Of a DNA stretch of 64,000 bases, positions 34,229-45,399 are shown piece after piece. The first letter of the stretch is position 1. The number at the start of each line of letters is the position of its first letter. The notes under the pieces are model-generated. The model had not been told where the DNA came from. It saw only the letters and a list, made by a program, of their open reading frames with translations, and searched no databases. The translations under genes were made by a program, and so were the position numbers. The DNA comes from an uncultured Candidatus Binatia bacterium (GTDB taxonomy: Bacteria > Desulfobacterota > Binatia > Bin18), in assembly GCA_965204455.1 (NCBI GenBank), contig CBDBEO010000001.1, positions 6,135-70,134 of the forward strand. Reading direction: 5' to 3'.

Positions 34229-34702
34229 ATGGGATCCCTCGTCAGACGCTGGAGCTGTGTGACCCTGGTCATGCTCGTAGCCGGCACGCCTATGCGAGTC
34301 GCCGCGTGTTTCGCCGATTTCTTTCCCAAGCAGCAGGTCGGTCAGGAGATGACGCTGACCGGCCAGTTCTACCGTTTTTCCTATGCGCGTCGCTTTTTTC
34401 GGCGCGACCCCAAGACCGGCCAGGTGGATTATTTTACCTTTTTTGGGGTAGAGGTCGTGCCGACCACGATTATCGGCGACGGGACCCTGTCGCAGGAGCC
34501 GAAGCAGATCGATTCCCTGCTGTTGCTGTATCCCGACGAGGAGCTGGTCCGGGACCTACCGGAGAAGGGCGATAAGATCTGGTTCACCGGCACACTGCTC
34601 GGCTATCAACACGGGGCGAGCGGCATTACCTCGGCCTTCGGCATTGGCGGGATGCCCTATATTCTGCTCAAGGGCTTCTCTGACCAGGCACCGGCGCCCT
34701 GA
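34229..34702 (+). CDS. Hypothetical secreted protein
   Basis: 157 aa with N-terminal signal peptide MGSLVRRWSCVTLVMLVAGTPMRVAA. No recognisable domain. Confidence 0.35.
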   Translation: MGSLVRRWSCVTLVMLVAGTPMRVAACFADFFPKQQVGQEMTLTGQFYRFSYARRFFRRDPKTGQVDYFTFFGVEVVPTTIIGDGTLSQEPKQIDSLLLLYPDEELVRDLPEKGDKIWFTGTLLGYQHGASGITSAFGIGGMPYILLKGFSDQAPAP

Positions 34703-34751
34703 ACTGCTCGGCGGCCTTGCCAAGACGCAAAAAAATCTGCACGGTCATAGC

Positions 34752-36527
34752 CCTATGGCGTGGGATGCGTGGTTTACCCTGGCGGTCGTGGTCGTCGGTA
34801 TTGGGGCCTTGATGCGGGATCTGCTGGCCCCGGATCTGATCTTTGTGGGGATGCTGGCCGTGCTGCTGGCGAGCGGGATTGTGTCGCCCCAGGAGGCGTT
34901 TGTCGGGTTTTCCAATCCGGAAATTCTCGCCATCGGCGCCCTGTTCGTGGTGGCCGGTGCGCTCCAGCATACCGGTGCTCTGGGCTTTGTGGCCACGCGG
35001 CTGTTCGGCCAGATTACCAGCCACCGACGCGCCCTGCTGCGCATGATGCTGCCCACCGCCGGCATCTCGGCCTTTTTGAACAACACCCCGATTGTGGCCA
35101 TGTTCACGCCGGTGGTGTTTGACTGGGCGCGACGCCACCAGGTGTCGCCGTCGCGCTTTCTCATCCCGCTGTCCTACGCGACGATTCTGGGCGGGGCGTG
35201 CACCCTGATCGGAACCTCGACCAATATGGTCGTCAACGGCTTGATGGTCGGCGCCGGACAGCCGGGCATGTCCTTCTTTGAGCTGAGCGCGGTCGGGGTG
35301 CCGTGTGCCGTGGTTGGCGTGGGCTTTGTGGTTATTGCCGGCCGCGTCCTGCTGCCCGACCGCAAGGAGCTGCTGGAAAGTCTGGGTGAAACGCGCCGCG
35401 AGTATCTGGTCGAGCTTGAGGTGACGGCCGAGTGTCCCCTGGTCGGCCAGCAGATCGAAGAGGCCGGTCTGCGCCACCTGCCCGGCCTGTTTCTGGTGCG
35501 TATTGAGCGATCCGAGGGAACCGTCTCTCCGGTCGGGCCGCAAGAGCGGATTCGGGTCGCCGACCGGCTGGTCTTTACCGGGGTGGTCGCGACGATCGTC
35601 GATCTGCAAAAGATCCGGGGGCTGGTGCCGGCCGGGGATCACCGCGACGGAGTCGAACGGGTCGGGGAGGGCAACAATCTGAGCGAGGCGGTCATTTCTG
35701 AGGACTCGCCGCTCAACGGGGTCACGATTCGAGACGCCAATTTCCGCACCCGCTACGGCGCGGCCGTGGTCGCGGTGCATCGTGGCGGGCGCCGGCTGAG
35801 CGGAAAAATCGGCGATATTCTGCTCCGCGCCGGAGACACCCTGTTGCTCGAAGCCTCGGCCGGTTTTGCCCGCACCTACCGCAACTCGGCCGACTTCTAT
35901 CTGGTGTCCGAGGTCGATAACAGCGCGCCGCCGCGGTACGACAAGGCCATTCCGGCCCTGCTGGCCCTGGTCGCCCTCATTACGACCGTCACCCTGGGCC
36001 TGTTGCCGATGATGACCGCCGCCCTGCTGGCCGCGTTTGGCGTCATCGTGTGTGGCTGTCTGTCGGTCGGCGAGACCCGCCGGGTTGTCGATGTCTCGGT
36101 GTTGATTCTCATTGCCTCGGCGTTCGGGATCGGCCGGGCGCTGGACAAGACCGGGGCGGCCGAATTTCTGGCCTCGTTTCTGGTCGAGGTCGGCGCCGGG
36201 CTGGGGCCGGTGGGCGTGCTGGCCCTAGTGTATCTGGTCACCCTGGTCTTCACCGAATGTATCTCTCACGCCCCGGCCGCAGTCCTGATGTTTCCCATTG
36301 CGGCCGAGACCGCCGGGCAGTTCGGGGTCGATGTGCGGCCGTTTGCGATCACGATTGCGATTGCCGCCTCGGCCGCGTTCGCCTCGCCGCTCAGCTATCA
36401 GACCCACCTGATGGTGTACGGACCGGGCGGCTACCGCTTTACCGATTTTCTGAAGATCGGCATTCCGCTCGACCTGCTGATCTTTGCCGTGGCCATGATC
36501 TGCATTCCGTGGATGTGGCCCTTCTGA
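34752..36527 (+). CDS. SLC13/DASS (ArsB/NhaD superfamily) anion permease with central TrkA-C (RCK_C) domains
   Basis: Start is MAWDAWFTLAVVVVG. Membrane repeats flank two soluble segments typical of TrkA_C: ...VTAECPLVGQQIEEAGLR... and ...VISEDSPLNGVTIRDANFR... Confidence 0.75.
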   Translation, partial: PMAWDAWFTLAVVVVGIGALMRDLLAPDLIFVGMLAVLLASGIVSPQEAFVGFSNPEILAIGALFVVAGALQHTGALGFVATRLFGQITSHRRALLRMMLPTAGISAFLNNTPIVAMFTPVVFDWARRHQVSPSRFLIPLSYATILGGACTLIGTSTNMVVNGLMVGAGQPGMSFFELSAVGVPCAVVGVGFVVIAGRVLLPDRKELLESLGETRREYLVELEVTAECPLVGQQIEEAGLRHLPGLFLVRIERSEGTVSPVGPQERIRVADRLVFTGVVATIVDLQKIRGLVPAGDHRDGVERVGEGNNLSEAVISEDSPLNGVTIRDANFRTRYGAAVVAVHRGGRRLSGKIGDILLRAGDTLLLEASAGFARTYRNSADFYLVSEVDNSAPPRYDKAIPALLALVALITTVTLGLLPMMTAALLAAFGVIVCGCLSVGETRRVVDVSVLILIASAFGIGRALDKTGAAEFLASFLVEVGAGLGPVGVLALVYLVTLVFTECISHAPAAVLMFPIAAETAGQFGVDVRPFAITIAIAASAAFASPLSYQTHLMVYGPGGYRFTDFLKIGIPLDLLIFAVAMICIPWMWPF

Positions 36528-36569
36528 GCTGAGGTCTGCCTTTTCAGGGTGCGTGTCAGGAGGACTGGT

Positions 36570-37331
36570 ATGAGCAAACAATTTGACGGAAAAGTCGCTT
36601 TGGTGACTGGCGGCAGCTCGGGCATCGGGCGAGCCTCGGCGCTGGCCTTTGCCCGTGAGGGAGCCCGGCTCGTTGTTGCTGATGTTGATGTCGAAGGCGG
36701 CCAACACACCTGCCGGCTGATTGAGCAGGCCGGCGGCGAAGCCGTATTTGTGGCAACCGATGTCTCGCAGGCGGCTCAAGTCGAAGCGGCGGTCAAGCGG
36801 ACCATCGACCGCTATGGGCGGCTGGATTATGCCCATAATAATGCCGGCATTGAGGGCATGGTCCTGACCCCAACGGCAGAGTGGACCGAAGAGGCCTGGC
36901 ACCGGGTCATCGGGGTGAATCTCAAAGGGATATGGCTGTGCATGAAGTATGAGATTCCGCATCTGCTCAAGCAGACCGGTGGGGCGATTGTCAACACTGC
37001 CTCAATCGCCGGCTTGGTCGGCAGTCGCTCAGCCGCCTACGGGGCCAGCAAACACGGCATCGTCGGGCTCACCAAAACAGCCGCCCTGGAATATGCCCGG
37101 TCAGGTATCCGGGTGAATGCCGTGTGTCCAGGTGTGATCCGTACTCCGATGCTGGAAAGAAGCTTAGAGCGTATGCCGGATCTCGAAGCCCGTTTTGTCG
37201 AGGTCGAGCCCATCGGTCGTATGGGTTCGCCGGAAGAGATCGCCGAGGCCGCAGTCTGGCTGTGTTCTGACGCGGCGTCGTTTGTGACCGGTCATGCCAT
37301 GGCCGTTGATGGCGGGTATGTGGCACGCTAG
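36570..37331 (+). CDS. SDR family NAD(P)-dependent oxidoreductase
   Basis: RBS caggagg, then start MSKQFDGKVALVTGGSSGIGRA (TGxxxGxG). The catalytic motif is YGASKHGIVGLTK. Confidence 0.9.
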   Translation: MSKQFDGKVALVTGGSSGIGRASALAFAREGARLVVADVDVEGGQHTCRLIEQAGGEAVFVATDVSQAAQVEAAVKRTIDRYGRLDYAHNNAGIEGMVLTPTAEWTEEAWHRVIGVNLKGIWLCMKYEIPHLLKQTGGAIVNTASIAGLVGSRSAAYGASKHGIVGLTKTAALEYARSGIRVNAVCPGVIRTPMLERSLERMPDLEARFVEVEPIGRMGSPEEIAEAAVWLCSDAASFVTGHAMAVDGGYVAR

Positions 37332-37402
37332 CATTTTTCTGGAAATTATCTGGAGCAGGCGGCCGTCTCACCACGGGCGCCACTCACACCCGGGGTAGGA
37401 CG

Positions 37403-38530
37403 CTAATCGCGGAAGCGCGGCATGACCTTTTCGGCGAACAGCTCGAAGCTGCGTAGCACCACGTCGCGGGGCAGCAGGCCGTCGCCAATCAGGAAGAACA
37501 TTTCGTCGGTGCCGATTTTGATCGCCAGTTCGATTTTGCGCGATACGCTGTCCGCGTCGCCGATCAGCGGCTCGGCCACCCCCAGGCCGAACGGAATGCC
37601 CCATTGCTCCCAGAACCAGCGGGTGTCGGCCAGGGCGCGCTGGGTCTGGGCGGCGCTGTCGGTCACCACCAGCTGTCCGCCCAGGGCCAGCTCGGTGCCG
37701 GGCGGGACGGTGCGGCCGGCCTTGTCGGCTTCTTCGCGGTAGATGCTCTGTAGCCGGGCGCACAGCTCTTCGTGCAGGAGAATGATGATCGGTTTGCCGC
37801 CCTCGCGGGCCCAGTAGCGAATCGACTCGGTGTTATGGGTAAACCCGGCGTACAGCGGCGGGTAGGGCTTTTGGTAGGGGCGCGGAGCGATGCCGACCTG
37901 CTCGATGCGCATATCCTCCGTCACCCCCGCGCCATAGCGGGTATAGGCTTCCATGGGATGCGGGTTTGTGGCGTCGGGGGGCGGGAACTGCCAGAACTCG
38001 CCCCGGTGGCAAAAGGTGTCCTGGGTCCAGGCTTTCTTGATGATCGCCACGCCTTCTTCAAACACCCGGCGGTTGAGCAGGTCGGAGGCCTGTTTTTTAT
38101 TCCAGTGGCCGACCGCCTCGACGCCCGGCCGGGTGGCATAGTTCTGGACCCAGCGCGCTTGATAGCCGCGCACGAAGGCGACGTTGAGCCGGCCTTGCAG
38201 CATGTGATCCATCATGGCCACATCCTCGGCCACCCGCAGCGGGTTGTGGGTGTTGAGCACATAGCCCAGCACGTCGACGCGCAGCCGCTCGGAATGCTGG
38301 CCGATGAACATGCTCAGCAGGCCCGGGCTGCCGGTCGCCTCCATGCCCTCGATCTGCAGGTGATGCTCGGGATGGCCGAAGCCGGCAAAGCCGGCCTGGT
38401 CGCACAAGCGGACGTAGTCCTTGAGATCGTTCAGCATGCGCTGGTACAGGGCCGGGTTTTTTCCGGCCATGCCGGCCTCCAGCTCCGGGCGGGTACCGAC
38501 CGTTCCGTAGGCAATCGCGTGAAATTTCAT
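37403..38530 (-). CDS. LLM-class flavin-dependent oxidoreductase
   Basis: 375-aa luciferase-like pattern: ...AGFAGFGHPEHH... Confidence 0.8.
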   Translation of the reverse strand: MKFHAIAYGTVGTRPELEAGMAGKNPALYQRMLNDLKDYVRLCDQAGFAGFGHPEHHLQIEGMEATGSPGLLSMFIGQHSERLRVDVLGYVLNTHNPLRVAEDVAMMDHMLQGRLNVAFVRGYQARWVQNYATRPGVEAVGHWNKKQASDLLNRRVFEEGVAIIKKAWTQDTFCHRGEFWQFPPPDATNPHPMEAYTRYGAGVTEDMRIEQVGIAPRPYQKPYPPLYAGFTHNTESIRYWAREGGKPIIILLHEELCARLQSIYREEADKAGRTVPPGTELALGGQLVVTDSAAQTQRALADTRWFWEQWGIPFGLGVAEPLIGDADSVSRKIELAIKIGTDEMFFLIGDGLLPRDVVLRSFELFAEKVMPRFRD

Positions 38531-38595
38531 CGTGCTCCTTTCAGCTCAGCACGGAGGTCGAGCGAGGCGTGGTGATCGGCCAGAACCAGCTGTAC

Positions 38596-39012
38596 TCATG
38601 GGCAGAGATCTTTCTTGAGCAGGTGTTTGTGCCGTTGGGTTTGATAGATATTGCCTCCAACGATTGATTTGAAGTCAGCGTGTAGATCTGTATCACTTGA
38701 GACCAACACGCGGACTCCAGAAACCTGAGCCAGAGCGAGGATGTCCGGGTCGTTCGAGCGTAACTTTGGCAGCCTCTTCTTCTCCTGCTCAACGGCTTCC
38801 ATGGGAAAGTCTTTGAGCTTCCCGGCTCTTCTGTATTGCGTAAACCGATTTCTCACTCTTGGCGATCTCTCTAATTCATCCTTCATTTTGCCCACCGGCG
38901 AATAGACAATTGCTCCGTTCTTGTTGTCTACCCAATCTCTCACAGGCTTCATATCTTCATTGTCGGGAGCGAGAAACAGGCCGTAGTTATCCGTGTCCAG
39001 AATAAGGCACAT
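38596..39012 (-). CDS. PIN-like domain nuclease (putative), inside a low-GC island
   Basis: Starts MCLILDTDNYGLF (the PIN strand-1 Asp motif). Four acidic positions have PIN-like spacing: D6, E45, D96/98 (NDPDILALA) and D117/119 (SSDTDLH). Local GC is about 45-50%. The alternative start at 39036 is non-ATG. Confidence 0.5.
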   Translation of the reverse strand: MCLILDTDNYGLFLAPDNEDMKPVRDWVDNKNGAIVYSPVGKMKDELERSPRVRNRFTQYRRAGKLKDFPMEAVEQEKKRLPKLRSNDPDILALAQVSGVRVLVSSDTDLHADFKSIVGGNIYQTQRHKHLLKKDLCP

Positions 39013-39022
39013 GATTCTGCTC

Positions 39023-40363
39023 TTAACTAAAACCAAGTAATTTATCGGATTCTTTGATAAAGAATTCCCGGTAGCTGGACGGAGCGCCTAACAGATTCGC
39101 CTGTCCGTCAAACATGATGTTGTGAACCTTGACGCCATTGCCTGCTGGCTCCAGGTAGATAAGCGAAACGTCTTCCGGCGATACTCTCTTGTTCATAATC
39201 TCGATACGGGCACGATCAACCATATAGTCGCTATGTGTTTCGATGATAAAATTATGCTTCTTCTGTTTGATCAGATCAATCAGCAAGGACGATAGCTCTG
39301 CTTGTCCTCTAGGGTGTAGGTGAACCTCCGGTTGTTGCATCAAAAACGGCACCCCCGGACGCGAATTTAACATGCGTACCAAAATAGGCAGAAGCTGATT
39401 TACGCCGTAGCCTACATCTATCATATTGACCTTCGGTCCTCTGACTTTGATTTGCAGTTGAAAGGGGTCACCAATGGATTTTCCGAGCCTTCTGACGTGG
39501 ATGTCTGAGAACAACCCAGAAGATTGACCAAATTCAATCAGTCTTTCCTTGAGTGCTTTCCACTCCTTCTCATTCGCCCTGAACATGTTCATGAGCACCA
39601 TAGGGATATCACTACCCTCGGGACTGATGGTTTCCTTCAAAGGGTTATAGGTCCGCTGCGGCTTGGAACGAATGGGTGCGAAGCTGTAAGGTCTTTCTTC
39701 GTACGGTCCATACCGTCTCCCAGATAAGAACTCTGGGAATCTTTCAACAAATTTGTAAAAATTCTCTTCCTCGGAAGACAGGTCCCTCTTCTCCGCCGCT
39801 TCAAACGCCATATAAGTCAAGTTAGACGATACGTTCGTATTCAATCGAGACCGATTTATCCTAACGACAAATTTCCTCAATCCCTCTTCTCCGACGCTCT
39901 CGCTAATTTCAGAGTTAGGGCCAGGAATCCTTTGTCTGTTTGGTTCATCAATCTTCTCTTTACCTTCGATGAAGACCATCTCACCCTCGGGAAGAGTTAC
40001 ACGCTGCTCCTGAACAACAGGCTCAGAACCCTTCTCTTTCTCCGTTAGGGTCAGGATATACTCTGTGCCACCTCTTTTGTTTTCGGAGCTGTACTCAAAG
40101 CCAAATCTGAAGCTTTTCTTTCGGGGGCTGGATTTCCTTACGATATCGGCGAACGTTCCCATTTGATAGGGATCGACGTTAAAATCCAAGTGGGACTCAT
40201 ATGGTGTCGGGCTTGCGAAAGTGTGTAAGGTTTGAAAACAGCCGAGAACGGTGGTTTTTCCGGTGCTATTCTCGCCGACCAGGAAGGTCAGGGGCCGGAT
40301 GTTGAACTCTTGTCTGCCGGCGAAACAACGAACGTCTTCGATTATCAATTTTCGGAGGTTCAC
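39023..40363 (-). CDS. AAA_21/AAA_15-type SMC-like ABC ATPase (OLD/AbiL/GajA-N-like, no nuclease domain), inside a low-GC island
   Basis: Walker A LVGENSTGKTT. C-terminal ...VPFLMQQPEVHLHP... then ...NFIIETHSDYM (H-loop THS). The Walker B position reads QQPE rather than the canonical DEPE. 446 aa. Confidence 0.75.
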   Translation of the reverse strand: MNLRKLIIEDVRCFAGRQEFNIRPLTFLVGENSTGKTTVLGCFQTLHTFASPTPYESHLDFNVDPYQMGTFADIVRKSSPRKKSFRFGFEYSSENKRGGTEYILTLTEKEKGSEPVVQEQRVTLPEGEMVFIEGKEKIDEPNRQRIPGPNSEISESVGEEGLRKFVVRINRSRLNTNVSSNLTYMAFEAAEKRDLSSEEENFYKFVERFPEFLSGRRYGPYEERPYSFAPIRSKPQRTYNPLKETISPEGSDIPMVLMNMFRANEKEWKALKERLIEFGQSSGLFSDIHVRRLGKSIGDPFQLQIKVRGPKVNMIDVGYGVNQLLPILVRMLNSRPGVPFLMQQPEVHLHPRGQAELSSLLIDLIKQKKHNFIIETHSDYMVDRARIEIMNKRVSPEDVSLIYLEPAGNGVKVHNIMFDGQANLLGAPSSYREFFIKESDKLLGFS

Positions 40364-40503
40364 ACCGTTACCTCCACAATCGTCATGGTGTCGTTGCCGA
40401 AGATGTCCACGACTTTGACGGCGATCTTATGCCGGCCCGGCGAGTATTCATGCCGATCATCATGCAGGAGCGCTCTGTACGTGCGTGACATCAGAATGTT
40501 TCG

Positions 40504-40806
40504 CTAAAACGGCAGGAAGCTCCGAAACAGGCTCCCGTCGTCGTCGGCCTCGACGGGTGGACCAAGCTCGTCGTCCTCGTCCGAGGCAAAGGGGTTCAGA
40601 CGGGCGAACAGGCCCGGCTTGACGATCACGTCTCCCTCTCGGGGTTCTACGTCTTCGGGACTGGCATAGACCGGCATCTCTGACCGGACGTTCTCGTCAA
40701 TGTACCGCTTGCCGACGAGGTGGTCTTCGTTATCGCCGCCAAAAATCCAGAACGAACACCCGCTCAGCGCCAGACACCACCACACACCCAGGAACACCTG
40801 TTTCAT
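40504..40806 (-). CDS. Hypothetical lipoprotein
   Basis: MKQVFLGVWWCLALSGCSF (lipobox LSGC), 100 aa, acidic C-terminus. Confidence 0.4.
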   Translation of the reverse strand: MKQVFLGVWWCLALSGCSFWIFGGDNEDHLVGKRYIDENVRSEMPVYASPEDVEPREGDVIVKPGLFARLNPFASDEDDELGPPVEADDDGSLFRSFLPF

Positions 40807-40840
40807 CGCCTTCTTCTATCCTCCTTGTGACCCGGACGGC

Positions 40841-43510
40841 TCATTCGGCCGGGGGGCCGAACAGGGTGCGCAGACTGATGTCGCCGAGCAGCAGGAAAAC
40901 GGCGGCAATAATCATGATGTTGTCCAGCGGGTGTAGCTGCTTGCGCTGACCCTCGCGCTTCTGAGCCACCAGCTCGTGGGGGGCGGGGTCGAGCTTGCCG
41001 CCGCTGCCCTCGGCCAGGGCGCGCAGCAGGTCGCGGTTGGGGTGCTGTTGGCGGTACTCGTCGAGCGAGGCATCGGCCGTGCGGCTGACCATGACGGTCT
41101 GGGTCTTCTGGTTGACGACCTTGCCGTCTTTGCGCTTGATGATCGTGACTGGAAAACTGCCCTGCTGCCGGCGGGCCATGACTGCCTCGTATACCCGCGG
41201 GGCGACCGGCATCAGGGTGATCAGATCGCTGGTCGCGCCGCGGGGCAGGCGGGCCTGCAGAATGCCGTCCTGGTCGCTGTCGTAGGACTCCACCCGCAGC
41301 ACGGTCCGGTTGCGCCGCTGGGGCATGCTGATCCGGTATTCCCAGGCTGTCTCGTCGCGCATTGACCAGCGCACGGCCTGCGACCAGAACTTGCCGAAAC
41401 CCGGCCAGCGGATCCAGTTGCCCGCCCCGCTGCCGCTGGGATCGAAGGTGACGGCCACGACCTTGCCCAGCCCGTACTGCCAGGTGGCCAGAATCGGGTC
41501 GCGTTCTTCCTTGGCATCGGTGTACAGCTGGACTTTTGCGCCCTGCTTGGGGTTGGTCAACATGTATTCGTCGAGGTCGGGGAAGTCGTGCAGGCCGCTC
41601 AGGATCTGGCCGCGCACCCCGACCAGGGGCTGGATGTGTTTGGGCTCCTGATCCTCCTCGTCCTCGTCTTCCTCGTCATCCTCACCCAGGGTCTGGCGGG
41701 TGTCCTTGACCAGCAGCTGGGGCAGCCGTGCCGCGTCAGAGACGTGATAAAACCGGCCCTTGGTTTTTTCGGACATGTAGGACAGCAGCCGCAGGTTGAC
41801 GGTGTCGGCCCCGATCCGGATCGTGGTGATCGAAATCTGGCGCTGGGTAATCAGGTTGACCAGGGGGTAGTGGTCGGCCGGGCTGCGGTTGGTGTCGCCG
41901 TCGGTCAGCAGGATGATATGGCGGATGGCCCGGCGGGTCTGTCCCAGCTGGTCGGCCGCGGTTTCCAGGGCTCTGAAAAAATCGGTGCCGCCGCCGTACT
42001 GCAGGCGTTCTATCTTATCGCGCAGCTCGTTCCGGTTCTGGGACAGGGGTCTCAGCGCAGACAGCACATACGCCTCCGAATCAAAGGCGACCGCCCCGGC
42101 CATGTCGCTGTCCTTGAGCTGACGCAGCACGGCCAGGGCCGACTGCTGGGCGTAGTGCATTTTCTGACCGTCGTGCAGCCCCCGGACCTTGCTGTTGTAG
42201 CCCATGCTGTTGGAGCGGTCGATGATCAGAAACAGGGCGATTGGAATGCGTTTCTTTTTGAGCGTTTTGGGCGCGGGCGGGGGTTGTTCCTGAAAGGTGA
42301 TGGGTAAGACCCGCTCGACCGGCGTCTCTCGAAAGGCCAGATCGCCGAAAGACCGGGTGCCCCCGGCCATCAGAAAGCCGCCGCCAAAATCGCGCACATA
42401 GCGCTCGATGACCCGCATCTGGCGGTCGGTGATACCGCCCCGGCCAATATCGTCAAACACCAGACAGTGATAATCGAGCAGATCTGACAACCGGGTCGGG
42501 ATGCCCTCGGGACTGCGGAACTCGATATCGACTTCCTTGAGCTGAAGCGCGCGGGCCAGGTGGGTGCGCGGGTTGTCGGTAATGACCAGCGCGCGCACCT
42601 TGCCCGAGACGGCCAGGGTGGCGTGTTGGCGGTTATTACCGGCCACGGTATCCGGCTCGGCCCTGATTTCGGCTCGCAGCAGATAGTTGCCGGGCTGCAT
42701 GATCTGGGCCGGCACCTCGAAAACCGACAGGCCGGGCCCGAGTTGGACCGACTGGTTGGTCAGCCGATCCTGGTTGGCGTGGATGGTCACCCGGCCCTCG
42801 ACCGTCTGCTCATTGCCGTTGCGGACCACCAGGCGCAGGGTAAACACGCTGCCCTCCCGCACCAGGGGCGGGATGACGAATTTCTCCAGGGAGACTTCGG
42901 GCTGTTGGCCCGAGGGCGGAATGACCGGGAAAATACTGATGCCCATCTGCCGCGCCAGGGCCAGATGCTGGCGCGCCGAGCCGCTCGTCTCGTTGCCGTC
43001 GGTCATCAGCAGCAGGCGCTTTTGGGCCTGTTCGGGGTAGAGGGCAAACACCCGCTCCAGGGCTTCGGCAATATTGGTTCCGCCGCCGGTGTGAGCCTCG
43101 TCCGGACCGACCGACACGCTGACCGAGGTCGGCGGGCCGGGCGGGACAAGCAGGCTGGTATCGGTGGCAAACGCCAGGGCCGAAAACTCCTCTTCGGCGG
43201 TCAGGTGGCCGCGCAGCTGGGCCAGGTAGTCGTTCATCCACTGGCGGCCCTCACGCGAGATGCTGTCCGAGGTATCCAGCGCCGCAACCAGGGCCAGCTT
43301 ATGCTCGGACAGGGTGGTTTGCAGGTTCAGGCCGGCCAGGGCGGCGACCAGGGCGACTGCGGCCAGGCTGCGCAGCACGGCGGCGCTGAACAACACCCCC
43401 CGTCCGCGCTGCCACACCAGCGGCAGCCACAGCAGCGGGACCAGGGCCAGCAGCCAGAACCAGTCCGGCTCAAGAAAGACGTAGCTGCGTCCGAAAATAT
43501 CGTAGCTCAT
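40841..43510 (-). CDS. Large von Willebrand factor A (vWA) domain membrane protein (BatB-like, aerotolerance-operon type)
   Basis: Start is MSYDIFGRSYVFLEPDWFWLLALVPLLWLPLV (the BatA_N-like NPxxL/TM region), followed by vWA-like segments (...LVAALDTSDSI..., ...LFLIIDRSNSMG...). An ATGA overlap with the upstream gene is verified at 43507-43510. Confidence 0.7.
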   Translation of the reverse strand: MSYDIFGRSYVFLEPDWFWLLALVPLLWLPLVWQRGRGVLFSAAVLRSLAAVALVAALAGLNLQTTLSEHKLALVAALDTSDSISREGRQWMNDYLAQLRGHLTAEEEFSALAFATDTSLLVPPGPPTSVSVSVGPDEAHTGGGTNIAEALERVFALYPEQAQKRLLLMTDGNETSGSARQHLALARQMGISIFPVIPPSGQQPEVSLEKFVIPPLVREGSVFTLRLVVRNGNEQTVEGRVTIHANQDRLTNQSVQLGPGLSVFEVPAQIMQPGNYLLRAEIRAEPDTVAGNNRQHATLAVSGKVRALVITDNPRTHLARALQLKEVDIEFRSPEGIPTRLSDLLDYHCLVFDDIGRGGITDRQMRVIERYVRDFGGGFLMAGGTRSFGDLAFRETPVERVLPITFQEQPPPAPKTLKKKRIPIALFLIIDRSNSMGYNSKVRGLHDGQKMHYAQQSALAVLRQLKDSDMAGAVAFDSEAYVLSALRPLSQNRNELRDKIERLQYGGGTDFFRALETAADQLGQTRRAIRHIILLTDGDTNRSPADHYPLVNLITQRQISITTIRIGADTVNLRLLSYMSEKTKGRFYHVSDAARLPQLLVKDTRQTLGEDDEEDEDEEDQEPKHIQPLVGVRGQILSGLHDFPDLDEYMLTNPKQGAKVQLYTDAKEERDPILATWQYGLGKVVAVTFDPSGSGAGNWIRWPGFGKFWSQAVRWSMRDETAWEYRISMPQRRNRTVLRVESYDSDQDGILQARLPRGATSDLITLMPVAPRVYEAVMARRQQGSFPVTIIKRKDGKVVNQKTQTVMVSRTADASLDEYRQQHPNRDLLRALAEGSGGKLDPAPHELVAQKREGQRKQLHPLDNIMIIAAVFLLLGDISLRTLFGPPAE

Positions 43511-45399
43511 TCCGCCCTCGCTCGGGTGTACCGCCACAGCGCGTACAGCCATTCCAGAAACAGCAGGCCTGCGGCGCCGTAGTACAACAGCTGGCCAAAC
43601 TCGACCGGCACGGTACGGCTGACCTCGTGGGGAGCCTGGGAGGTGTCCAGAACGACCGGCGCCGCCTCTGGAGCGGGCTCGGCCTGGGGCTGGCGTCCGA
43701 TGTCCGACTCGAGTTCATCGAACAAATTCGCGTACCACGTGGTCCGGTAGTCGCCGTTTTGCAGCCGATAGGCGCCCACGTGTGGAATATCCACCGCTGC
43801 GGCTTCGAGTGAGCGCGTTTCGCCGCCAGGCAGGGTCAGTTCCAGCGTCTCAAGCGCCACCGAGGTCGGCACAAAGAAGGTTTCGCCGGGCGTGGTCAGG
43901 GCCGGGACGCTGGGGTCTGGCGGCAGCAGCCAGCGCACCGCGTTCAGAAACAGCAGCAGCAGGCTCAGGTTGTCGGAGTCGGTCAGGTTGCCCCGGCCCA
44001 GGTCAAAGGCCAGGCACACCACCCGGTGGCCGTCTTTTTCGCCGGTCAGCGCCAGCGGCACCTCGCCGCCAGCGGTGCGTGACGAGATCAGGACTTGGGC
44101 CCACGACGGCAGGGCCAGCACCCGGGCCTTCTTGAGCGGCAGGGCGTCAACATACTGCAGGTTATGCAGAATCTCGTGGCTCTCGCGCCAGTCCAGAATG
44201 CTGAGATCTTTGGCCTCGGCCACGACCGGAAAGAGCGGATTGTCCAGAGGCGGGAAGACGTACAAACTGTTGGCGGCGACCGCCGTGCCGGGGACGAACT
44301 GGTGGAACACGACGATGTCCTGGGGCTCAAGGCTGAGGGTGGAAAAGTCGTCCGGGCTGACCGCAGTCAGGCTGAGGTTGGGAATCGAGCGGCTGACCCG
44401 TTGCAGCTCGCTGTGCAGGCTGGGGCTGGCCGAGACCAGGACGAGGCGGCGCTCATGACCCTGGGCCACCCAGGCCAGGGCCTGGTTGTCGACCGACAGC
44501 CCGTCGTCGGGACTGATCCGGGCGACCAACTGGCCGGCCTCGCTGAAGTTGCCGATTGAAAAGGACGCGCTCTCGCGGGCCGGCAGGCTGAACGTCCGGC
44601 GGAAGATCTGGCGCTCGTTCAGGTGGACCGTCAGGCTGCCCCGCTTGGTGCGTGCGGCGTAGTTACGGACCAGAATGTAGGCGCGCGCCTGCGAGTAGTG
44701 CTGGAACGGGTTCTGGTACAGGTTGAGGGCGGCCAGGGCGATATTGTCGTCGTTGCGACCGACCCGGTGATAGACCAGATGCGCCAGCTGGGCCTGGGGC
44801 AGGCTGAGCTGGGCCTGGGGCACGTCGGTGAAGACGTGAACGCTGGCCCGCTGGCCGGCCCGGTCGCGCTGGGCCAGGGCCAGCTCAATCCCGAGGTCGA
44901 GGTTGGTCGGGCTGTCCTCGGGCCGCAGCGATTCGAGCAGGTGCAGAAAGACGCGGTGGTCGGTGGTAAAGCCGCTGACCACCCGGGGGCGGGCCGCCAC
45001 GCTGATCAGCATCACCTCGTCGAGCGGTCCGAGGGACCGCACGACCTGGACGGCCTGGGCGCGGGCCAGGCTGAAGCGCTGGGTGGTGCCCTCACGGACC
45101 TGCATGCTGGCCGACACGTCAAAGACCAGAATATGGCGGTTGCCCTGAACCTCGGTGACCGTATGGGGGCGGTAGGGGTGCAGCAGCCCGCTCAGCAGCA
45201 GGCTCAGCAGCAGGGCTTGCAGCAGGAACAGCAGACTCGGCATGAACCGCCGGACGCGGACGCTGTCCTCCCTGATTTCGTTCCAGAACATCAGGCTGGC
45301 CACCTCAACCCGTTTCCGCCAGCGCTCCCGCAGGTAGACCAGGATCAGAATGCCCAGCAGGGCAAACAGCGGCAGGGCGGCTGGATTCAGAATGCCCAT
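43507..45399 (-). CDS. BatA-like aerotolerance-related membrane protein (Bat N-terminal domain plus vWA-like region)
   Basis: MGILNPAALPLFALLGILILVYL is the characteristic BatA N-terminal motif. ...ILVFDVSASM... is a vWA MIDAS-like DxSxS. Confidence 0.7.
   Translation of the reverse strand: MGILNPAALPLFALLGILILVYLRERWRKRVEVASLMFWNEIREDSVRVRRFMPSLLFLLQALLLSLLLSGLLHPYRPHTVTEVQGNRHILVFDVSASMQVREGTTQRFSLARAQAVQVVRSLGPLDEVMLISVAARPRVVSGFTTDHRVFLHLLESLRPEDSPTNLDLGIELALAQRDRAGQRASVHVFTDVPQAQLSLPQAQLAHLVYHRVGRNDDNIALAALNLYQNPFQHYSQARAYILVRNYAARTKRGSLTVHLNERQIFRRTFSLPARESASFSIGNFSEAGQLVARISPDDGLSVDNQALAWVAQGHERRLVLVSASPSLHSELQRVSRSIPNLSLTAVSPDDFSTLSLEPQDIVVFHQFVPGTAVAANSLYVFPPLDNPLFPVVAEAKDLSILDWRESHEILHNLQYVDALPLKKARVLALPSWAQVLISSRTAGGEVPLALTGEKDGHRVVCLAFDLGRGNLTDSDNLSLLLLFLNAVRWLLPPDPSVPALTTPGETFFVPTSVALETLELTLPGGETRSLEAAAVDIPHVGAYRLQNGDYRTTWYANLFDELESDIGRQPQAEPAPEAAPVVLDTSQAPHEVSRTVPVEFGQLLYYGAAGLLFLEWLYALWRYTRARAE

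Follow-up and report, generated by a model that had tools for sequence, protein, structure and literature searches.

A conserved glutamine pair at the Walker B position of an ABC ATPase encoded beside a predicted PIN-domain protein in Candidatus Binatia

What can an ABC (ATP-binding cassette) ATPase do once both acidic residues of its Walker B motif have become glutamine? The question is raised by an uncultured Candidatus Binatia bacterium, in whose contig CBDBEO010000001.1 a stretch of 64,000 nt (hereafter the window) carries an ATPase gene whose product reads QQPE at this position. A sequence-only reading of the window had taken the pair for a natural E-to-Q trap in an island ATPase that might gate a partner nuclease. 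We find that the glutamines are correctly placed and conserved throughout a large family, and that the next gene encodes a small protein with a predicted PIN fold. Taking these results together, we hold it somewhat probable that selection has kept QQPE as the mark of a separate DUF3696-type ABC ATPase sub-family, undescribed so far and a sibling to NsnB and the HEC-03 ATPase, that the two genes form one module, and that the ATPase works in it as an ATP switch.

The glutamine pair, its family and a PIN partner

Four independent lines show that QQ occupies the site at which OLD and PtuA carry the two Walker B acids. Searches with phmmer against PDB sequences pair flmQQPEvhlhp with the segment viiEEPEmylhp in Thermus OLD (6p74) and the segment vliDEiElhlhp in PtuA, which sets QQ on the EE of the former and the DE of the latter, and a profile built from 62 family sequences gives the same register. 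In an AlphaFold2 (AF2) model of the ATPase (predicted value of the local distance difference test, pLDDT, 89.7; predicted template-modelling score, pTM, 0.91), a beta-strand at residues 339–342 ends right before Q343/Q344 and a second strand at 371–376 leads into H377. The best structural matches of this model are the heads of SMC, Rad50 and PtuA (E about 1e-11). The protein has a regular Walker A of the form GxxxxGK[ST] after strand 1 (GENSTGKT) and lacks a Walker B of the form hhhh[D/E]E with its catalytic Glu, showing QQ at the aligned positions. The placement made from the sequence alone is thus borne out, and the alternative named with it, a true Walker B in the later LLIDL segment, fails: this segment lies inside helix 351–368 of the AF2 model, and its Asp, D363, is unconserved (E29/K18/Q14/D13/N12).

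The pair is conserved in close and distant orthologues alike, as the sequence-only reading needed it to be. QQ is found in 120/120 of the closest database homologues (55–100% identity). Across 150 representatives of 50%-identity clusters, reaching down to 37% identity, Gln occupies position 343 in 149/149 and position 344 in 143/149 (the others are 4 E, 1 L and 1 T), E346 is kept in 147/149, and E375 and H377 are each present in 147/147. Residues 341–360 form the most conserved block of the ATPase, followed by the P-loop. At 83 genomic loci, 82 of which encode QQ, the ratio of CAA to CAG is 43:39 at codon 343 and 42:41 at codon 344; because the two codons are used about equally and a Glu codon is one G/C transversion away, it is Gln itself that is under selection. 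More than 270 independent homologues carry the pair, an identical ATPase protein occurs in an independent ENA assembly, and a search of one genome per species found at least 501 QQ-family loci across many phyla. Four cluster representatives (P0212, P0234, P0241 and P0252) read QE(P)E and may be regarded as natural "revertants," with Glu again at the catalytic position and the first Gln kept.

The ATPase belongs to an ABC clade whose known members have models of their own. Its Pfam matches, AAA_15 (8e-18) and AAA_21 (3.7e-13), are above the cut-offs, and an ABC head fold is further indicated by the AF2 model, the H-loop residue H377 and a signature-type motif (G318, G320 and Q323). Plasmid relatives are annotated as "DUF3696 domain-containing protein." The Pfam DUF3696 model finds no match in the ATPase, and profile-profile comparison (hhalign) with DUF3696 families gives a probability of 100% and an E-value of 6.5e-51 over residues 2–445 on 1–447, with QQ aligned onto EQ. 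The motifs of the clade are present as QQPEVHLHP, ETHS, GYG and R232/R237 (Arg in place of the Q-loop Gln, R237 being invariant in the QQ family); only the first residue of the dyad differs, being Q and not E. The PADLOC matches are NsnB (1e-40, the best), PDC-M55A (1e-35), HEC-03B (2e-24) and AriA (1e-20). On their own models, true members reach far better scores (Psychrobacter NsnB 1e-119; an Aeromonas HEC-03 ATPase 7e-134 and its partner 2e-24), which indicates that the window ATPase stands for a sibling family of its own. Its assignment to HEC-03 or PDC-M55 proper was rejected on these scores and on a partner that goes unrecognised; no specific model captures the QQ family, which is new in itself.

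Ten nucleotides downstream of the ATPase lies a gene whose product has no match in Pfam (including its PIN models), NCBIfam or PHROG. Its true start is M9 of a 146-aa open reading frame (ORF), in keeping with orthologues of 138 aa. The AF2 model of this protein (pLDDT 93.7) has VapC/PIN structures as its top 20 Foldseek matches in the PDB (TM 0.5–0.6, the highest at 0.55–0.60). D6, E46, D88, D107 and D113 are invariant in the orthologues, and the first four, matching the four acids expected of a PIN domain, sit at strand ends and helix starts. The partner is therefore predicted to be a PIN-fold protein with an intact acidic set and a putative nuclease. It directly follows the ATPase at 78/85 loci in many phyla, and the same PIN family adjoins distant QQ ATPases of 29–33% identity on viral contigs (L098–L100). 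Across the 85 loci the only other recurrent neighbours are Mod-like (17 loci) and Res-like (12 loci) genes. A nuclease-type partner, as the sequence-only reading had supposed, is thus supported by the modelled fold, the invariant acids and the adjacency. The two genes most likely form a self-contained module for abortive infection or toxin–antitoxin (TA)-like anti-phage defence.

Proposed switch or re-wired active site

How unusual the dyad is depends on the baseline. The sequence-only reading had measured it against DEPE, which does not hold for this clade: HEC-03, NsnB and the plasmid and viral relatives read EQPE or ENPE. Among 12 plasmid relatives the Walker B pair is EQ in 10, EE in 1 and EN in 1 (a true NsnB), and EQ is found in 119/119 HEC-03-like proteins. 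NsnB itself has been described as having EN instead of DE, an Arg where the Q-loop Gln would stand and GxG at the place of SGG (Li et al., PMC12065111). Loss of the catalytic Glu is hence ancient and clade-wide, is partly published, and extends to HEC-03, an experimentally active member. The natural E-to-Q of the sequence-only reading is thus real at the catalytic position and is an old trait of the whole clade; what is particular to the QQ family is E343Q alone, at the first Walker B position. Position 343 is Q in 66/66 QQ-family proteins and E in 65/65 proteins of the EQ families, and P-loop position 31 is E in 63/66 of the former and A, R, Q or T in the latter. These are the only two family-discriminating positions inside the nucleotide-binding motifs, and the GENS P-loop accompanies QQ even in four distant viral proteins, so that E343Q is coupled to E31.

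The residue two positions before the H-loop His (H-2) varies with the Walker B pair. Among 59 diverse relatives encoded on viral contigs, H-2 is Glu in the 43 proteins with EQ (as E-[ST]-H-S), the 1 with EN and the 4 with QQ, and is Thr, Asn or Ser in the 11 with DE; Glu at H-2 is thus found in 48/48 proteins with EQ, EN or QQ vs. 0/11 with DE. It is also found in the 12 plasmid relatives and the 119 HEC-03-like proteins. One of the former, from Acinetobacter (L087), combines Glu at H-2 with an EE Walker B, which shows that the residue can be present where the Walker B Glu has been kept. The idea that E375 compensates for QQ in particular was accordingly rejected: Glu at H-2 occurs clade-wide, accompanies EQ, EN and in one case EE, and is older than QQ.

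On balance we favor an ATPase that is a slow or non-hydrolysing ATP switch gating the nuclease. ATP would, by homology, be sandwiched between the P-loop of one protomer and the GYGxSQ motif of the other, and the paired C-terminal DUF3696-like domains would grip the PIN protein and hold it inactive. A Walker B strand without a carboxylate should make basal turnover very low, so that the ATP-closed, nuclease-holding state would be the long-lived default. A trigger acting on residues 121–220 might then open the dimer or provoke a single slow turnover via E375, E31 and E346, and the freed PIN RNase might arrest the cell. The strong constraint on the motifs for nucleotide binding and the dimer sandwich (K36, GYGxSQ and H377) is consistent with ATP binding and dimerisation. 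A sensing role for residues 121–220 is suggested by their variability: column conservation is 0.07–0.16 there and 0.5–0.8 elsewhere in the ATPase, and pLDDT dips at residues 142–148 and 217–220 of the AF2 model.

Engineered E-to-Q mutants of ABC proteins and natural degenerate sites (CFTR NBD1, TAP1) likewise have a non-acid at the position of the catalytic Glu, and ATP occlusion is expected of them. In natural degenerate sites, however, the H-loop His and the signature motif of the partner are usually gone as well, and such sites belong to heterodimers with one active site; in contrast, the window ATPase is presumably homomeric, keeps its His and signature, and loses the Walker B Asp/Glu too. 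A related ATPase offers an engineered parallel: in PARIS, AriA E393Q loses defence and nuclease release and stays locked on the nuclease (PMC10802264), which by analogy would illustrate the effect of Gln at that position and speaks for an ATP-closed, nuclease-holding default.

Several points weigh against such a switch and the module built on it. The H-loop His and the acids E375, E346 and E31 are retained and invariant or nearly so, unlike in typical degenerate ABC sites, so catalysis may have been kept by other residues; judged from these motifs, the active site looks remodelled rather than decayed. The AriA mutant cuts both ways: because it is defence-dead, a hydrolysis-dead ATPase would need a release mechanism other than that of PARIS, and a simple permanent trap would, on that analogy, fail. 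Furthermore, no convincing promoter was found upstream of the ATPase in the window, and the PIN protein has no match to the HEC-03A model.

The strongest alternative, which we regard as plausible though less probable than the switch, is a re-wired site that remains catalytically competent, with normal or conditional hydrolysis and no trap. The catalytic carboxylate of the DUF3696 clade would have moved from Walker B+1 to the H-loop (sensor-1) strand, as E-x-H (E375), and in the QQ step the Mg-ligand carboxylate would have left the Walker B strand for the P-loop (A31E with E343Q). The perfect split at H-2 (48/48 non-DE proteins with E, 11/11 DE proteins with T, N or S) argues for this, as do the same Glu in the plasmid and HEC-03-like proteins, the invariance of E375 and H377, and the standing of 343 and 31 as the sole family-discriminating positions of the nucleotide motifs. 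The H-loop strand also lies between the P-loop and Walker B strands in the known topology of additional-strand, catalytic-glutamate (ASCE) and ABC ATPases. However, the covariation may stem from one or two ancestral events rather than from repeated compensation, L087 has both EE and Glu at H-2, and we know of no precedent for such a site among ABC ATPases. A broader proposal drawn from the same motifs, which is tentative and in our view rather unlikely, is that the DUF3696 clade, experimentally active defence systems among its members, runs on a re-wired centre (E-x-H as the site of the general-base Glu, with GENS in the QQ family), which would be an active-site architecture new to ABC ATPases, or else that these are homomeric ABC proteins that would signal purely by ATP binding.

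A cassette apparently left from a Type III restriction–modification operon

The locus reveals a part of the history that the sequence-only reading had not seen. At eight related loci (L002–L008 and L014) the ATPase–PIN pair lies between an N6_N4 methyltransferase gene (mod) and a ResIII helicase-nuclease gene (res) of a Type III restriction–modification (R-M) system, and in such embedded relatives the mod stop codon overlaps the ATPase start, so that the cassette is translationally coupled. The window retains the last part of mod as a relic ending in …PGRHKIAVKVVDIFGNDTMTIVEVTV and a stop, which overlaps the ATPase start codon as GTGA (4 nt). Nothing else of mod and nothing of res is left, and genes for a luciferase-like monooxygenase (LLM) and an SDR protein follow. 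Two Candidatus Binatia metagenome-assembled genomes (MAGs; L006 and L007) share the flanking genes of the window (BatA-like, VWA, lipoprotein and CitMHS transporter) at 72–89% identity and carry the full Mod-ATPase-PIN-Res operon at the syntenic site. A further locus, L158, also lacks the R-M genes (relic-ATPase-PIN-LLM), and its mod relic is more decayed. Such nesting of modules has been termed "embedding" (Payne et al., bioRxiv 10.1101/2024.01.29.577857); embedding in Type III R-M followed by loss of the R-M genes is new. What had been called an island ATPase is one half of a two-gene cassette that a Type III R-M operon appears to have left behind.

When the window is compared with L158, dN/dS is 0.11 for the ATPase and 0.08 for the PIN gene while the mod relic decays, indicating that the cassette has been kept functional on its own after the R-M genes were lost. 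Its dS values (0.87 for the ATPase and 0.58 for the PIN gene) are 3–7 times those of the flanks (0.13–0.18). G+C content is 45–50% in the cassette, 55–59% in mod/res and 62–65% in the flanks, and some 1.9 kb of sequence containing the ATPase gene have 46–49% G+C within a genome of 62–69%. High dS and low G+C fit a separately exchanged, embedded module, and the high dS suggests that cassette alleles have been exchanged at this site. Direct or inverted repeats flanking the cassette were limited to short chance matches.

The embedding bears on a second alternative, that the cassette is no autonomous defence and is either an accessory or regulatory part of Type III R-M or a plain addiction (TA) module hitch-hiking in R-M operons. 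The 4-nt overlap with mod, the same-strand embedding, the stepwise G+C content of cassette, R-M genes and flanks, and persistence after R-M loss, as for an addictive module, would all fit. We nevertheless consider this improbable: Mod-like and Res-like genes are near only 17 and 12 of the 85 loci, and since most cassettes stand alone, an obligate R-M accessory role is excluded. In addition, homologous HEC-03 ATPase+PIN pairs defend against phage unaided, and a TA-like mechanism is compatible with defence, PARIS being both. Finally, the chance that the pair stems from faulty sequencing or assembly, from a pseudogene or from a Walker B placed in the wrong register is negligible, given QQ in so many homologues and loci, the codon usage, the identical independent protein, the intact ORF under purifying selection (dN/dS 0.11) and the location of LLIDL in a helix.

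Several further observations concern the setting of the cassette, the coordinates of which are collected in Table 1. A variable hotspot within a conserved Binatia-like neighbourhood contains it, and between the VWA gene and the island lies an ORF of 100 aa whose product starts with a lipoprotein-type signal (…LALSGCSF) and is acidic in its C-terminal half; it is 72% identical in L006/L007 and has no family match. At five R-M-embedded loci (L003, L005, L006, L014 and L016) mod and/or res are split or truncated with intact ATPase and PIN ORFs, which could reflect true decay of the R-M genes or their phase variation, or else frameshifts introduced as errors into long-read MAGs. The best 80 genomic relatives (L006–L085, 37–65% identity) come, by their record names, mostly from marine-sponge-associated lineages of many phyla, including Poribacteria, Ca. 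Binatia, Latescibacterota, Caldilineaceae, Spirochaetia, Bdellovibrionales, Poriferihabitaceae and Porisulfidus. This distribution suggests horizontal spread of the cassette within the sponge holobiont; sponge microbiomes are rich in defence genes (PMC5099237).

Table 1. Coordinates of the cassette, its motifs and associated features (window positions unless a locus is named)
Feature	Residues	Position	Strand	Description or basis
Variable hotspot		34644-45399
PIN partner gene	138 aa	38596..39012	(-)	VapC-like PIN-domain protein; AF2 and Foldseek
ATPase ORF ("QQ family")	446 aa	39023..40363	(-)	ABC ATPase, OLD-ABC/DUF3696-type clade; GTG start codon seven bases past a GGAGG ribosome-binding site
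C-terminal DUF3696-like domain	385-446	39026..39211	(-)	hhalign end to end with PF12476-bearing relatives
H-loop strand IIETHS	373-378	39230..39247	(-)	E375, Glu at H-2; H377, H-loop His
Walker B and D-loop-equivalent block FLMQQPEVHLHP	340-351	39311-39346	(-)	register from OLD and PtuA
E346 codon	346	39326-39328	(-)
Q344 codon	344	39332-39334	(-)	CAA
Q343 codon	343	39335-39337	(-)	CAA
Signature-motif equivalent GYGVNQ	318-323	39395..39412	(-)	GxG replaces SGG; G318, G320, Q323 invariant
Hypervariable insert, candidate trigger-sensing region	121-220	39704..40003	(-)	column conservation, pLDDT dips
Walker A GENSTGKT	30-37	40253..40276	(-)	family-specific E31; G30, G35, K36 invariant
mod relic, about 30 codons and stop		40360..40452	(-)	HEYSPGRHKIAVKVVDIFGNDTMTIVEVTV and stop; 27/30 vs. 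Mod C-termini of L002, L006-L008
ORF with lipoprotein-type signal	100 aa	40504-40806	(-)
HEC-03-type pair and RNA ligase		L088 3362-5990; L089 3347-5909; L095 2365-4983
352-aa partner of the EQ DUF3696 ATPase of a Bacillus plasmid		L086 5380-6438

Relation to known systems and significance

One close relative among the described systems is HEC-03 (Hma-embedded candidate 03), where phage defence requires both genes (Payne et al., bioRxiv 10.1101/2024.01.29.577857). It shares with the window an operon pair in which the gene of a DUF3696-type ABC ATPase precedes that of a small VapC-like PIN protein, replacement of the catalytic Glu (as EQPE, with an E-S-H-S H-loop) and, with the relatives of the window, embedding in a methylation-based defence operon. 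It differs in its host operon (Hma vs. Type III R-M), in its Walker B (EQ vs. QQ), in the GENS P-loop of the window and in the length of the PIN protein (about 177 vs. 138 aa). On the HEC-03B model the window ATPase scores 2e-24 vs. 7e-134 for a true member; on HEC-03A a true partner scores 2e-24 and the window PIN has no match; moreover, hhalign of the window PIN with the HEC-03-type PIN finds no similarity beyond the first strand.

Menshen (Millman 2022; Li et al., NAR 2025, PMC12065111) also joins such an ATPase to a PIN-fold protein. Its NsnB resembles the window ATPase in having an ABC head with a DUF3696-like tail, an Arg Q-loop, GxG and a non-canonical Walker B, which is EN vs. QQ in the window; the window ATPase scores 1e-40 on the NsnB model vs. 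1e-119 for NsnB itself. NsnC has an inactive N-terminal PIN-like domain with a C-terminal toxin domain, whereas the window PIN is stand-alone with its acids intact. No gene for NsnA (ParB-DUF262) occurs in the window or at the 85 related loci, and canonical Menshen was rejected for lack of NsnA and for the single-domain PIN. In an AlphaFold3 model of NsnB4–NsnC2, NsnB is predicted to hold the NsnC PIN-like domain through a DUF3696 dimer (PMC12065111).

More distant systems share the logic rather than the sequence. In PARIS, the OLD-ABC-type ATPase AriA sequesters the nuclease toxin AriB and releases it on a phage trigger in a TA-like manner (PMC10802264), but AriA has a canonical DE and needs hydrolysis, and its partner is a Toprim/DUF4435 nuclease, not PIN. 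OLD, GajA and PtuA belong to the same superfamily and show the same hhhh-XX-PE-x-HLHP ... THS layout; they have an EE or DE Walker B, S/T at H-2 and a fused Toprim or HNH partner, and their similarity to the window ATPase is at the motif level only (E 1e-5 to 1e-12). PrrC, nested in the Type I R-M system EcoprrI, is an RNase controlled by an ABC-type ATPase and a back-up when restriction is neutralised; it is, however, a single polypeptide with its own anticodon-nuclease domain in a Type I host, and most window-family copies are not embedded. An ABC ATPase with a PIN protein within methylation-based defence (HEC-03) and a non-canonical Walker B in the clade (NsnB) were thus known. The absence of both Walker B carboxylates, the coupling of E343Q with GENS, and the rule, holding across the clade, that E-x-H goes with a missing Walker B Glu are new.

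Relatives within the clade also differ in their partners. On Aeromonas, Rhodococcus and Azotobacter plasmids, HEC-03-type pairs (an EQ ATPase and a 170–178-aa PIN-like protein) are followed by a gene for an "RNA ligase family protein"; the three genes could form an RNA-damage-and-repair triad, and the ligase supports an RNA target for the HEC-03-type PIN partners. On a Bacillus plasmid (L086), an EQ DUF3696 ATPase is paired with a 352-aa protein that is not a PIN protein and has no Pfam match; its IIDSD … NKREMENYLP motifs are reminiscent of DUF4435/Toprim (AriB-like). Partners thus appear to have been swapped within the DUF3696 clade.

Pairs of an ABC ATPase and a nuclease (Gabija, Septu, PARIS, Menshen and HEC-01 to HEC-04) count among the most frequent immune modules of bacteria, and whether ATP binding or hydrolysis carries the signal is a question explicitly raised for the HEC systems (bioRxiv 10.1101/2024.01.29.577857). 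The QQ family is a natural experiment on this question, being large and under strong purifying selection, with both Walker B carboxylates replaced by Gln and the other nucleotide motifs intact. The locus also documents a defence cassette outliving its host R-M operon. Should the family prove hydrolysis-dead, a toxin can be gated by ATP binding with no hydrolysis; should it hydrolyse ATP, E-x-H in the clade and GENS in the family would mark a non-canonical catalytic arrangement of ABC proteins.

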